From: a bacterium
GTDB taxonomy: Bacteria > UBA10199 > 2-02-FULL-44-16 > JAAZCA01
DNA: 64,000 nt
Direction of reading: 5' to 3'
Assembly (NCBI GenBank): GCA_963674695.2
Contig: CAXXGI010000003.1
Location: forward strand, 704,001-768,000
Under the pieces are notes generated by a model. The model saw only the letters and a program-made list of their open reading frames with translations, made no database searches and was not told the DNA's origin. Positions within the stretch are counted from its first letter, which is position 1; each line of letters starts with the position of its first letter. Below are positions 16,115 to 46,263 of the stretch, one piece after another. Position numbers and translations under genes: made by a program.

Positions 16115-16573
16115 TTAATGCAGGAAAGAATCTTCTGGGCCGAGGGCTTCTTCGACGAGGGGGCGGCGGTGTTCGGCATCTTCGCCAACCGCGTGCCAGT
16201 GGCGCACTTCGTTTTCGCCATACTGCCAGGAGAGCAGGATCTCGTCGCGGCCGAGCCAGGAATAGATGCTCACGATGCCGTGATCGAGATCCTCGATGAC
16301 CACGCCGAGCGCGTGAATTTCATCGAGCAAACCGGCATATTCCTCGGAGAGACGGCGAAACTGGCGATGGAGGAGATAGGCGACGGGATGTCCCGTCGTC
16401 TCCGTCTCGCCGGCGGCCTCATCGGGACCGAGCTCAATGCCCAGCTCGCGGGCACGACGTGAAAGCTCATTGACCTTATTCTGAATGCGGCCGAGTTCGG
16501 CGAAGAGCAGTTCCAGCCGCGGGATCAGCGAATTGGCCTCATCGATGGTGTAGTAACTGCGGCGCTCGTGCAT
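16115..16573 (-). CDS. DUF2203-like protein
   Basis: YYTIDEANSLIPRL..GVVIEDLDHGIV..EILLSWQYGENEVRHWH pattern typical of DUF2203; SD GGAGG before the ATG at 16573. Confidence 0.75.
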   Translation of the reverse strand: MHERRSYYTIDEANSLIPRLELLFAELGRIQNKVNELSRRARELGIELGPDEAAGETETTGHPVAYLLHRQFRRLSEEYAGLLDEIHALGVVIEDLDHGIVSIYSWLGRDEILLSWQYGENEVRHWHAVGEDAEHRRPLVEEALGPEDSFLH

Positions 16574-16592
16574 GCGCGTGCCTCCGTTTCGC

Positions 16593-17150
16593 TCACCCAT
16601 TCCCCTTGGCGTGGGTGATCTCTTTCTGTGCTTGATACTTCCCCTTCTTGTCCGCGTAGGAGACCGCACAGGTCTCGCTGGCCTCGAGGAAGAGAATCTG
16701 TCCGATGCCCTCGCCCGCGTAGATCCGTGCTGGTCGGGATGTCGTATTCGCGATGGCGATCGTAGCGTGCCCCTCCCACTCGGGTTCGAAGGGAGTCACA
16801 TTGATGGTGACACCACACCGAGCGTAGGTCGACTTGCCATAACAGATCGTGAGCACATCCCGCGGAATGCGAAAATATTCCACCGTCTGCGCCAACACAT
16901 AGCTATTGCCGGGGATCTCGCAGACATCCCCTTCGAAATCGCGGAAATGAATCTGATCGAAAGCCTTCGGGTCCATGACGGCCGTATCGCCCGGCACATA
17001 GATCTTGAATCGCCGATCGATACGAAAATCGTAGCCATAAGAGGAGAGCCCGTAGGAGATCCCGGATCGAACCTGCTTCTCCTCAAACGGCTCGATCATA
17101 CCGTGCTCGAGTGCCTGATTTCGAATCCAACGGTCGGAATGAACGCCCAC
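16593..17150 (-). CDS. dcd: dCTP deaminase
   Basis: [41 protein letters not shown]. Confidence 0.95.
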
Positions 17151-17292
17151 GATTCCTCCTCTGCCGCGATGAATGGTCGCGCACTATACCGATGCAGACA
17201 GCGATTTCAAGCGGTGCCATCATTTTTCGAAAAAACGCTTGATTTTCGACTGCCTCCGGCCGCATCCTCCCCGTTCAAAACGAGGATTATCC

Positions 17293-17949
17293 GTGTCCCG
17301 AAAACAAACGATCATCATCGCCGCCGCTACCTTCGTGGGAATCGGATGGTTTTATCTGCTCAGCGCGACCTTCGGCGCCCCCATGACGCTCCATCTCAAT
17401 CTGTTCACCCCCGGGAAGACGGCCTATATGAAGGCATGCCCCGAGGATATCCACCAACGGTGGGTGCCGCTGGATACGATTGCACCCTTTCTGCAGCAGG
17501 CGGTGGTCATCGCCGAAGACGACCGATTTTTCGATCACCCAGGATTTGACTGGGAGGCCATCAAGACCGCGGCACGGACCAACTGGAAACGCGGGGAGAT
17601 GGCGCACGGCGCTTCGACCATCAGCCAACAGTTGGCGCGCAACCTCTTCCTCTCGCCGAACAAATCCCTCTGGCGCAAAGCGCGCGAACTCATCATCGCC
17701 CTCAAACTGGAGCGGGATCTGCCGAAGAAGCGCATCCTCGAACTCTATTTGAACGTCGTCGAATGGGGAGATTGCATCTATGGGGCCGAGGCCGCCGCGC
17801 GTCACTACTTCGGCAAACCCGCAGCCGCCCTCACCAAGCACGAGGCCGCCTGGCTCGCGGCCATCCTTCCCCAACCGCGATTCTATGATACGCACCGCAA
17901 TGGGGCTTATCTGACTTCGCGAACCACATCGATTGAAAGTCGATTGTAG
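17293..17949 (+). CDS. mtgA: Monofunctional peptidoglycan transglycosylase
   Basis: AEDDRFFDHPGFD, GASTISQQLARNLFL, RKAREL, ILELYLNVVEWG GT51 motifs; GTG start after GAGGA. Confidence 0.9.
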   Translation: MSRKQTIIIAAATFVGIGWFYLLSATFGAPMTLHLNLFTPGKTAYMKACPEDIHQRWVPLDTIAPFLQQAVVIAEDDRFFDHPGFDWEAIKTAARTNWKRGEMAHGASTISQQLARNLFLSPNKSLWRKARELIIALKLERDLPKKRILELYLNVVEWGDCIYGAEAAARHYFGKPAAALTKHEAAWLAAILPQPRFYDTHRNGAYLTSRTTSIESRL

Positions 17950-17958
17950 GGCACCTCT

Positions 17959-18000
17959 AAAAAAAATGGGCCTGAACTCCCTTGCGGGGATCCAGGCCCA
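17959..18000 (-). terminator. Intrinsic terminator downstream of the histone gene
   Basis: Stem tgggcctg..caggccca with an 8-nt U tract on the minus strand. Confidence 0.65.
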
Positions 18001-18023
18001 ATATCCACCTTCTTGAACACTTC

Positions 18024-18203
18024 TCAGATATCACGATCCTTCACCGTCTGGCGGCCGTTGTCCTTCGCCCGCGCAACGGCTTTGTCGAGCAGATCACGCA
18101 CCGCATCTGAAAGGGCATCCACCGCCGTCTCAGAGGTCTGCATGCCCTTCGCCTTCACATATTCCTTCACCTTCGATACCACGACCAATGTTTCCTTTGC
18201 CAT
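18024..18203 (-). CDS. Bacterial histone-fold protein (Bd0055/HBb-like), 59 aa
   Basis: Manual translation MAKETLVVVSKVKEYVKAKGMQTSETAVDALSDAVRDLLDKAVARAKDNGRQTVKDRDI*; SD AAGGAGGGGAG; histone RxTxxxxD clamp motif; below the ORF-track size cut-off. Confidence 0.9.
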   Translation of the reverse strand: MAKETLVVVSKVKEYVKAKGMQTSETAVDALSDAVRDLLDKAVARAKDNGRQTVKDRDI

Positions 18204-18298
18204 GACTCCCCTCCTTGCAAATGGCTATCTGTTTTCGAGTGACGGCAGTTTCGGAAATCGACCCCCTCTTGTCAAATCAAAAAGGGCATTCACCATCG

Positions 18299-18327
18299 TT
18301 GACAACGAAAAGATGCTCTGATAATTT
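18299..18327 (+). promoter_or_regulatory. Sigma-70 promoter for tRNA-Lys/tRNA-Glu
   Basis: TTGACA-N17-TAATTT followed by a GC-rich discriminator, 22 nt upstream of tRNA-Lys. Confidence 0.55.
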
Positions 18328-18349
18328 CCGCCGACTTTTTCGATGACGT

Positions 18350-18425
18350 GGGCCGCTAGCTCAGTTGGCAGAGCAGCGCCCTTTTAAGGCGCGGGTCGAA
18401 GGTTCGAATCCTTCGCGGCTCACCA
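18350..18425 (+). tRNA. tRNA-Lys(TTT)
   Basis: Cloverleaf: GGGCCGC/GCGGCTC acceptor, GCGCC-CTTTTAA-GGCGC anticodon arm, GGTTCGAATCC T arm, encoded CCA. Confidence 0.97.
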
Positions 18426-18431
18426 TGAAAG

Positions 18432-18523
18432 CAGTGGGAAGTGGGAAGTGGGAAGTGGGAAGTGAACATCGAATACCGATGGTTTCCATCGCTTTTCACT
18501 TCACACTTCTCACTTTACACTGC
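18432..18523. repeat. Heptamer array (AGTGGGA)x4 with an inverted degenerate array between the tRNAs
   Basis: cagtgggaagtgggaagtgggaagtgggaagtg ... cacttcacacttctcactttacactg. Confidence 0.75.
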
Positions 18524-18529
18524 TTTTCA

Positions 18530-18601
18530 GACCCCATCGTCTAGCGGTTAGGACACCGCCCTTTCACGGCGGCGGCACGGGTTCGAGTCCCGTTGGGGTC
18601 G
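18530..18601 (+). tRNA. tRNA-Glu(TTC)
   Basis: GACCCCA/TGGGGTC acceptor, CCGCC-CTTTCAC-GGCGG anticodon arm, GGTTCGAGTCC; CCA not encoded. Confidence 0.95.
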
Positions 18602-18602
18602 C

Positions 18603-18642
18603 AAAAAATCCGGAGAGGCTTTATGCCTCTCCGGATTTTTTT
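18603..18642. terminator. Intrinsic terminator after tRNA-Glu
   Basis: aaaaaatccggagaggc-tttat-gcctctccggattttttt perfect stem. Confidence 0.85.
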
Positions 18643-18860
18643 GCGTCCCTGGGACTCGAACGCCCGCCGAAGGCGGGCTGTTCGACGACCTTCCGACAGC
18701 CAGTCACCGAAGGTGACCCAATAATGCTGAAGTGCCGGCGCGTGGGTACCGCGCGCCGGCGCACCGTTGGGGTCGCAAAACGATTATGGCCGAGAAGGTA
18801 TCGGAACCACGGTTCCGACCGACCTCCCGACAGGCTCGCCGCGTGCTTGATAAAAATGAC

Positions 18861-18909: not shown

Positions 18910-19806
18910 ATGAACATAGCTCTCCCCTGCCTACTGACCTCGCCCGAACTCCTACTCCTGTCGGGCGCGCACACGACCTCCCTTGGTTCAGGGGAGGCAT
19001 TCGATCTCCTTCATCAGTTCAGCACCGAGCTGAACACCGAGGTCGACTCCGTCGCTCATCCCACGTCCGAAACACCGATCGTGCATATGGCCGAACAGCT
19101 GGCGATCATCAAGGCCGACGAACCGGATCATTACGCCGCTGCCCTGCAGGGTCTGCAATACGTTATTGGCTTGGAGCCATCGACGCGGCTCTTCCGTCAA
19201 ACCTGGTTTTCAGGGGAGAGCACCATCATTCGTCCGCTGACCTTTCAGGTGAGCAACCGGGAGACCGATGATCATCCCCTGGACCTGAGCGAGAAAGAGA
19301 CCTCCATGAATCTCACCCTCTCAGAGATGCCGCTCGAAATACATCGGTATATTGGAGTAGAAATCCAACGCCTGCGCCGGGCCCGAAGCTTGAACTCGAA
19401 GCAACTCGTCGAGCTGCTCGGCATGGAGGATAATAGCTCCGCCTCAGCAATGCATTTCATCGAAACGGGACAGCAGCACACAAACTGGCCGCTCCTCTTC
19501 GCCCTTCAGCGTATCTTCGGCCTCGAATCGCTCTATTTCTTCAAGCTGTGCTCCATGCTTCTCGATAAGGGCGATGTTCCCCCATTCATCAGCGAAAAGG
19601 TGCGTTTAAAAAAGGCCCATTTCTACTATCACCGTGCAGCACGCCTCAAGATGGCAGGCGAACTGACCTCGGAGCACATCCGCGAGATCATCGACGAGGC
19701 GAGCGTCTATCAGATTCATAACCAGTCGTTTGCCCTGGCCGATGCGCCGCCACAGACGATCCTGGGACCATTTTCGCTCCTCCTCAGCCTCCTGCTCAAA
19801 CGATAA
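18910..19806 (+). CDS. Orphan protein with a central XRE/Cro-like HTH domain
   Basis: IGVEIQRLRRARSLNSKQLVELLG..AMHFIETGQQHTNWPLLFALQRIFGL resembles HTH_3; SD AAGGA. Confidence 0.65.
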   Translation: MNIALPCLLTSPELLLLSGAHTTSLGSGEAFDLLHQFSTELNTEVDSVAHPTSETPIVHMAEQLAIIKADEPDHYAAALQGLQYVIGLEPSTRLFRQTWFSGESTIIRPLTFQVSNRETDDHPLDLSEKETSMNLTLSEMPLEIHRYIGVEIQRLRRARSLNSKQLVELLGMEDNSSASAMHFIETGQQHTNWPLLFALQRIFGLESLYFFKLCSMLLDKGDVPPFISEKVRLKKAHFYYHRAARLKMAGELTSEHIREIIDEASVYQIHNQSFALADAPPQTILGPFSLLLSLLLKR

Positions 19807-45903: not shown

Positions 45904-46263
45904 CTAAGAGTTGAAGCCCTCTTCCCCCGAAGGCGCCGTCTGCGGTGGAACCGGCGGTGCCCCGGTTGGGGATGCCGCTACGGCCTGCCCCTCATCCACC
46001 CGCTCCTTGAGCTCCTTGCCCACCTTGAAAAAGGGAAGCCGCTTCGGCTTGACCTGGATAGACTGCCCGGTGCGCGGATTTCGGCCGGTATAGGCGCCGT
46101 ATTCCTTGACGACGAAGCTCCCTAACCCCCTGATTTCGATGCGATCGCCACGTTTCATGGCCTCGATCATCGAATCGAAGATGAGGTTGACCACGTCCTC
46201 CGCACGTTTCTTCGTGATTTTCGACTTCTCGGAGACTACCTCGATGAGTTCTGACTTGTTCAT
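45904..46263 (-). CDS. ihfB: Integration host factor beta / HU family
   Basis: MNKSELI..RIEIRGLGSF..GRNPRTG..PFFKVGKELKERVD. Confidence 0.85.
   Translation of the reverse strand: MNKSELIEVVSEKSKITKKRAEDVVNLIFDSMIEAMKRGDRIEIRGLGSFVVKEYGAYTGRNPRTGQSIQVKPKRLPFFKVGKELKERVDEGQAVAASPTGAPPVPPQTAPSGEEGFNS

Follow-up and report, generated by a model that had tools for sequence, protein, structure and literature searches.

Does an open reading frame of 59 codons in the genome of a bacterium of the UBA10199 lineage encode a histone, and, if so, of which kind? The frame lies on the reverse strand of a 64,000-nucleotide stretch of contig CAXXGI010000003.1 (the window), together with the features listed in Table 1. 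An earlier note had read it as a bacterial histone with a truncated alpha3 helix, resembling Bd0055 (HBb) of Bdellovibrio bacteriovorus, and had proposed that the organism uses histone-based chromatin. To our knowledge, HBb and the HLp protein of Leptospira are the only bacterial histones that have been characterised. Bacterial histones as a whole are reported from less than 2% of genomes (Hocher et al., 2023).

Table 1. Features of the histone locus and a further nucleoid-protein gene; positions are those of the window.
Feature	Position	Strand	Remarks
59-aa alpha3-truncated histone CDS	18024..18203	-	ATG 18201-18203, stop TGA 18024-18026; from ORF list
Shine-Dalgarno region AAGGAGGGGA	18207..18216	-	GGAGG 18210-18214, 6 nt 5' of ATG
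Intrinsic terminator	17959..18000	-	hairpin 17967-18000, then U8 17959-17966
Candidate histone -35 box TTGACA (TGTCAA on +)	18270..18275	-	invariant bases in 9 loci; putative promoter role
Weak candidate -10 box GAAACT	18247..18252	-	17 nt past -35; 3/6 consensus match; putative
Candidate tRNA-operon promoter	18299..18327	+	TTGACA 18299-18304, TG 18319-18320, TAATTT 18322-18327
tRNA-Lys (UUU)	18350-18425	+	ARAGORN; divergent neighbour of histone gene
tRNA-Glu (UUC)	18530-18602	+	ARAGORN; second gene of divergent tRNA unit
Monofunctional transglycosylase gene	17173-17949		convergent to histone gene
HU/IHF-family (PF00216) gene	45997-46263	-	one of six in genome, over Pfam cut-off

Prokaryotic histones fall into several classes. 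As described by Schwab (2024), alpha3-truncated histones have an alpha3 of 3-4 residues and an alpha2 shorter than that of nucleosomal histones. Members of the face-to-face (FtF) type, a class defined by a tetramer predicted with confidence in which the interface between the dimers is closed, form a toroidal tetramer, and bacterial dimers are without the FtF logo residues R48 and N52 (Schwab, 2024). Nucleosomal archaeal histones have, in the same account, a longer alpha2 and a 10-residue alpha3, and form open-ended hypernucleosomes and no closed tetramers.

Sequence and structure both place the window protein among the histones. In phmmer searches against the PDB, HLp from Leptospira perolatii scores best (9qt0, E 2.9e-11), and the B. 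bacteriovorus histone chains 8fvx/8cmp match over the full length (E 3e-9). The AlphaFold2 (AF2) model, made from a 90-row alignment, has pLDDT 95 and pTM 0.72, with helices at residues 9-17 and 25-48. Its alpha2 (25-48), one-turn alpha3 (56-58) and chain end at residue 59 correspond to the alpha3-truncated form. Foldseek against the PDB gives 9qt0_A (HLp) first (TM 0.90/0.94, rmsd 0.9), HBb 8fvx with TM 0.90/0.85, HTkC of Thermococcus kodakarensis (9f2c_A) with TM 0.87/0.89, and nucleosomal histones lower, at TM of about 0.5-0.7; the rows listed were all histones or histone-fold proteins, the top nine having TM 0.85-0.94. AF2 and Foldseek thus return the bacterial histone fold with truncated alpha3 that the earlier note had read, in the very test, a predicted structure of another kind, that it had named as able to overturn its reading. 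The RxTxxxxD motif of histones is present as R51, T53 and D58, of which, in the 90-row alignment, T53 and D58 are invariant and R51 reaches at least 90% conservation.

In the profile search suggested in the same note, every curated family model stayed under its cut-off, CBFD_NFYB_HMF with 15.0 of 21.4 bits. Likewise, the Pfam Histone model (14.0 of 26.4 bits) and the NCBIfam archaea_histone model (24.2 of 50 bits) stay below cut-off; the Pfam and NCBIfam histone models were not built for short alpha3-truncated forms. DUF1931, a Pfam profile of 138 positions for pseudodimeric histones with two fused histone folds without DNA-binding residues, was considered and rejected, as its 18.1 of 21.8 bits come from profile positions 19-53 only and the window protein is a single fold of 59 aa. 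The sequence matches in the PDB, together with the AF2/Foldseek fold, therefore make the window protein an alpha3-truncated histone sensu Schwab (2024).

The likeness to Bd0055 holds at the level of the family. HBb (PDB 8FVX, 8CMP, 9EZZ) has the same alpha3-truncated fold, and the LVVxSKVK and GRxTVxxRD patterns, given in the earlier note, align and are carried by both proteins. HBb is not, however, the closest match, since HLp is better in both sequence and fold, and R45 and N49 of the window protein are absent from HBb-type dimers. Structural-alignment identity, on the other hand, is higher for HBb (52-53%) than for HLp (46-47%). The closest characterised relative is HLp, not Bd0055.

HLp (PDB 9QT0-9QT2; Hu et al., 2025, PMC12701072) and the window protein are alike in an alpha3 cut to one turn, in the RD clamp (R55-D62 in HLp, R51-D58 in the window protein) and in a chain that ends one residue past the clamp Asp. 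They differ in that HLp has 63 aa with a short N-terminal tail, whereas the window protein is tail-less, and in HLp residues S52, T61 and F63, which are D48, R57 and I59 in the window protein. The gene neighbours also differ, being smc/map for HLp and tRNA-Lys/Glu plus a transglycosylase gene for the window histone. HLp is reported to wrap about 60 bp of DNA around a stable tetramer (PMC12701072).

HTkC, an archaeal FtF histone (PDB 9F2C), is more distant in sequence (phmmer E 9.8e-6, 40% identity); like the window protein it has 59 aa and no tail. Its loop 1 is longer by two residues, and its host is archaeal and also has nucleosomal histones. HTkC is reported to wrap DNA around its toroid. 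The nucleosomal histones HMfA/HMfB, as well as HPhA, share the histone fold and RxTxxxxD with the window protein at TM 0.56-0.65. For HLp, HTkC and HBb, binding to DNA has been reported to be without sequence preference.

The window protein carries the residues by which FtF histones are told from bacterial dimers. R45, N49, R51, T53 and D58 have the spacing of the FtF logo residues R48, N52, R54, T56 and D61, and in the phmmer alignment R45, N49 and R51 fall on R49, N53 and R55 of HLp, the residues from which its tetramer interface is made (Hu et al., 2025, PMC12701072). HTkC has Arg at the same position, also numbered R45, which is needed for its tetramer: according to the HTkC preprint its partner is the C-terminal carboxylate on the dimer opposite, and the R45A mutant is a dimer. 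At the position of N49 HTkC has Glu, and Asn is therefore not needed in every FtF histone. HBb has Ser and Asp at the positions of R45 and N49. Among the close homologues of the window protein the signature R...N.R.T....D is found in 106 of 108, the two exceptions being a partial and a frameshifted-looking sequence, and, of the 99 with a length of 59 aa, 98 carry R45 and 98 carry N49.

The chain end follows the same division. The window protein and 105 of its 108 close homologues end one residue past the clamp Asp, whereas HBb runs several residues past it. In 54 distant singlets from a representative library, whose rows are kin and not independent, this end is seen in 33 of 34 sequences with the Arg and Asn (R+N) and in 2 of 18 without them. 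By ending one residue past D58, the chain would have its terminal carboxylate placed as in HLp and HTkC, where it could pair with the conserved Arg of the FtF class.

In a complex model with four copies of the protein, one copy contacts its dimer mate and, at residues 44-45, 48-49 and 57-58, the other dimer, with an expected error below 8 A for the contacts to the other dimer, which lie where a face-to-face interface would be expected. The partner pLDDT is 92, and at least 98% of contacts agree between runs. Three runs gave ipSAE values of 0.88, 0.88 and 0.89, while the best of three controls had 0.00; the mark used was reached by 20 of 30 solved same-chain pairs and by 1 of 23 solved single chains, a calibration made with two copies that holds only roughly here because the protein's own alignment and four copies were used. 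As the tetramers of HLp and HTkC are already solved, the four-copy result may also be memory, and it speaks for likeness to them, not for binding.

The signature and the model together make a face-to-face tetramer the likely mode of the window protein. It is improbable that the protein is instead an HBb-type bacterial dimer, which would stay a dimer and compact DNA by bending, with no wrapping by a tetramer. HBb is reported to be a strict dimer of this kind, and the window protein matches its chains with E 3e-9 across the full length, 52-53% identity and TM 0.85-0.91; the dimer class, however, is without the Arg and Asn and yields no confident assembly larger than the dimer, whereas the window protein has R45, N49 and a confident modelled dimer-dimer contact. 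Its chain end is that of the R+N singlets, unlike that of 16 of the 18 others.

Relationships within the family bear on the same point. A quick maximum-likelihood tree (92 singlets, 59 columns) has a window clade of 38 rows (SH-aLRT 89), apart from an HLp-like group (30 rows, anchor P0217) and an HBb-like group (17 rows, near P0200); only 2 of its 89 inner branches are starred, and it does not separate HLp-like from HBb-like as the nearer group, which leaves room for a dimer. One DPANN sequence stands on a long branch inside the window clade, a placement that is not reliable. HBb-like paralogues do occur in the same phylum, but in genomes with both types the R+N copy matches the window protein better: for example, in G077 identity is 71% for the R+N copy (E 1.5e-20) as against 53% for the HBb-like one (E 4.1e-11).

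Taken with the chain end and the four-copy contact, the FtF signature suggests a toroidal tetramer around which DNA would be wrapped whatever its sequence. The window histone is thus probably a tail-less, 59-aa, alpha3-truncated FtF histone, forming a DNA-wrapping ring tetramer, expressed from a monocistronic gene and acting alongside HU/IHF. In the mechanism proposed, two chains would form the usual head-to-tail histone-fold dimer, and two dimers would join into the ring through the C-terminal end of alpha2 (R45, D48, N49) and loop 2 (R51), with the one-turn alpha3 and the free C-terminus (R57, D58, I59) also taking part in closure. DNA would be bound along the rim of the tetramer, without sequence preference, by S10, K11, K13 and K17 of alpha1 and by loop residues T23 and T53, with the R51-D58 clamp holding, and would wrap the tetramer as in HLp and HTkC. 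Six of the nine DNA-contact positions of HLp are identical in the window protein (S10, K11, K13, K17, T23, T53), and three differ (V9, E25, Q52). According to Schwab (2024), FtF histones that lack an N-terminal tail are more typically archaeal than bacterial.

The step from this protein to histone-based chromatin, taken in the earlier note, is unproven. In the organism's genome (3.03 Mb in 3 contigs, 100% complete) there is a single histone gene beside six HU/IHF-family (PF00216) genes over the Pfam cut-off (L012-L017), the one in Table 1 included. The histone therefore coexists with classical nucleoid proteins, as HBb does with HU in Bdellovibrio and unlike the case of Leptospira, which is without HU and Dps according to PMC12701072. 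It may serve as one nucleoid-associated protein beside the HU/IHF-family proteins. Three sequencing runs were listed, all from one study and none of them of RNA.

A histone fold could also belong to a protein with no general role in chromatin, such as a scarce regulator acting at particular loci, or an adaptor between proteins, in a nucleoid dominated by HU/IHF; Schwab (2024) cautions that not every prokaryotic histone-fold protein need organise genomes. The six HU/IHF-family genes fit such a role, as does the weakly basic character of the window protein (pI 9.1, net charge about +1.5), the histones of two relatives having a pI of 6.2. The codon index points the same way, the histone standing at just the 83rd percentile of 2296 ORFs from a crude purpose-built caller, while two HU-family genes, the highest among the nucleoid-protein genes, are above the 99th; the index, referred to 24 Pfam-confirmed genes for ribosomal proteins, EF-Tu, EF-G and IF-1, carries little weight because the median of the reference genes is close to that of the genome. 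Codon bias is weak genome-wide (median 0.69 in the reference genes, 0.68 in the genome). Against a role outside chromatin stand the conserved DNA-contact residues and RxTxxxxD clamp, the very strong purifying selection, the conserved strong Shine-Dalgarno sequence, perfect -35 box and own terminator described below, and the DNA binding without sequence preference of the characterised HLp, HTkC and HBb. Such a role is accordingly given even less chance than the dimer, and a DNA-wrapping tetramer beside HU/IHF is the preferred reading.

The 59-aa ORF is a genuine gene. Its translation is identical to the sequence given in the earlier note, and the protein is already present as a called product in a large protein collection (P0001). 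A search of that collection yields 108 homologues at E <= 0.001 from 108 candidates, with 64-100% identity. Codon-level comparison was made with the genes of seven relatives, in two of which synonymous sites are saturated; against the other five, dN/dS is 0.047-0.093 at dS 0.9-1.9, which shows very strong purifying selection on the histone gene. A chance open frame, which the shortness of the ORF (59 codons) and a 102-aa ORF overlapping it on the opposite strand (18013-18321, +) might suggest, is ruled out by the pattern of conservation (99 of the 108 homologues exactly 59 aa long, low dN/dS at dS near or above 1), and the confident predicted fold and the positive codon log-odds of 17.2, by which the histone ORF beat the overlapping one in the purpose-built gene caller, agree with this.

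The gene has expression signals of its own. AAGGAGGGGAGTC stands directly 5' of the histone ATG and contains the GGAGG core at the spacing given in Table 1; GGAGG or GGGAGG precedes the gene in the window locus and in 11 of 11 relatives, as befits the very strong Shine-Dalgarno sequence claimed earlier, and in an intergenic alignment of nine divergent loci C7, C8 and T9 of CCTCC are invariant. The terminator, also claimed earlier, sits between the histone stop and the convergent transglycosylase stop (17947-17949), and its 86-nt stretch folds with dG -33.8 kcal/mol (z -2.98), 3 of 200 shuffles folding equally well or better. A GC-rich hairpin followed by a run of 5-8 T within 80 nt past the stop is found in the window locus and in 11 of 11 relatives.

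The tRNA-Lys and tRNA-Glu genes are divergent from the histone gene, as the earlier note had it, with 146 bases between the start of tRNA-Lys and the histone start codon. In relatives of the same family and order, tRNA-Lys adjoins the histone gene in 11 of 11 loci, tRNA-Glu follows tRNA-Lys in 10 of 11, and the tRNA genes are divergent from the histone gene in 10 of 11. In one relative of the same family (L022), tRNA-Lys and tRNA-Glu lie upstream and are co-directional with the histone gene.

Candidate promoters for both units lie in the intergenic region. For the histone gene, alignment positions G68, T69, C70, A71 and A72 of the candidate -35 box and A76-A80 are invariant in the nine loci, the first T of TGTCAA being present in seven of nine; the A/T run so conserved (18279-18283) precedes the box on its own strand. 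The only invariant base of the candidate -10 box is its second, an A (alignment position T48). For the tRNA genes, TTGACA and TnTGnTA (18317-18323) are invariant in the nine loci and read as a promoter with an extended -10; this promoter and the -35 box of the histone gene stand back to back. A simple consensus scan of 17800-18700 gave no sigma-70-like promoter and also missed the terminator hairpin; it missed the tRNA promoter because the -10 box matches the consensus at fewer than four of six positions. The boxes would act as the histone and tRNA promoters. The conservation of Shine-Dalgarno sequence, terminator and boxes in the relatives argues for a conserved monocistronic unit back to back with the tRNA promoter. 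In the proposed mechanism, the histone would be made from this single-copy unit, which would have a promoter and a terminator of its own as well as a strong ribosome-binding site, and which is transcribed divergently from the tRNA-Lys/tRNA-Glu unit.

Nearby genes are of housekeeping type and include those for dCTP deaminase, DUF2203, DnaJ, ferredoxin and a DUF481 protein. Four tandem 7-base units GGGAAGT (18434-18465) separate tRNA-Lys from tRNA-Glu within their spacer, and a 298-aa ORF straight after the tRNA pair (18910-19806, +) has no Pfam match at E <= 0.001. The DUF2203 ORF (16115-16669, -) and the dCTP deaminase ORF (16593-17150, -) overlap by 77 bases (16593-16669); the listed start of the former is probably too far upstream, because its Pfam match begins at residue 39.

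Histones of this family are widespread in the phylum of the organism, which comprises 93 species genomes in one class and 24 families. Searching with the window protein alone finds a match at E <= 0.001 in 72 of 93 genomes (53 of 63 of high quality), and searching with the alignment profile finds one in 74 of 93 (54 of 63), covering 23 of 24 families. A profile match is absent from some near-complete genomes, e.g., G055 (one contig, 97% complete). Forty matches from other families of the phylum (L031-L070) were examined, of which two were read in the wrong frame. R+N is present in 14 of the 40, and 11 of those 14 end one residue past the Asp; 24 are without R+N, most of them HBb-like (GMNTS...DGRKTVMDRD plus a short tail).

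Up to three types of alpha3 histone occur in one genome of the phylum, i.e., R+N, HBb-like and Cys-rich-extension, and several genomes hold two or three. The long Cys-rich N-terminal extensions of some copies (e.g., L044, L051, L062) recall by description the 'ZZ histones'; three of the long Cys-rich paralogues (L040, L044, L062) have no Pfam match at E <= 0.01. The top scorers of a library clustered at 50% (P0109-P0127 and others) are chains of 114-274 aa with two alpha3 histone folds each, a form with no representative in the window genome. Two singlet histones of DPANN archaea (L010, L011) have 57% and 49% identity to the window protein and the same R...N.R.T....D signature.

Members of the clade have been seen before. 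Three proteins with its DNGRQT motif are among the bacterial histone-fold proteins that Hocher et al. (2023) list in their Supplementary Table 1, one of which (PIU58409.1) is identical to homologue P0097, and the main text of that paper has no mention of 'Deltaproteobacteria' or 'UBA10199'. Many homologues are annotated as 'histone H3/H4' by JGI and as hypothetical by NCBI, and the NCBI labels of the named relatives are 'Deltaproteobacteria bacterium', 'bacterium', 'Bdellovibrio sp.' and 'Anaerolineales'. [quoted passage not shown] A full-text literature search found no paper joining 'UBA10199' with 'histone', and among the matches listed for 'UBA10199' and '2-02-FULL-44-16' none is on histones. 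The window histone is thus a real and not unexpected member of a recently described family, and only two points go beyond print, one being that alpha3 histones are nearly universal in the phylum and the other that the gene's pairing with a tRNA promoter is conserved.

These two points allow a wider, rather doubtful proposal, in which the whole phylum would keep alpha3 histones as vertically inherited core chromatin proteins, and the level of the FtF tetramer, acting with HU/IHF and not in their place, would track growth rate via the tRNA promoter. If this were true, the phylum would be a further bacterial lineage with persistent histone chromatin, beside Bdellovibrionota and Leptospirales. The order of the window organism has the FtF type, which there would be a tail-less tetramer of archaeal length, its gene transcribed divergently from a strong tRNA-Lys/Glu promoter, and other families have HBb-like and Cys-rich-extension copies.

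The current view of bacterial chromatin is unchanged by this gene, and three members of the clade had already been tabulated in a published survey. What the window histone adds is a clean, tail-less bacterial FtF histone whose lineage is uncultured and has such genes almost universally. With DPANN relatives that are 49-57% identical, it allows a test of the archaeal origin of bacterial FtF histones, and it offers a natural setting for asking how a tetrameric histone and HU/IHF proteins share one nucleoid.
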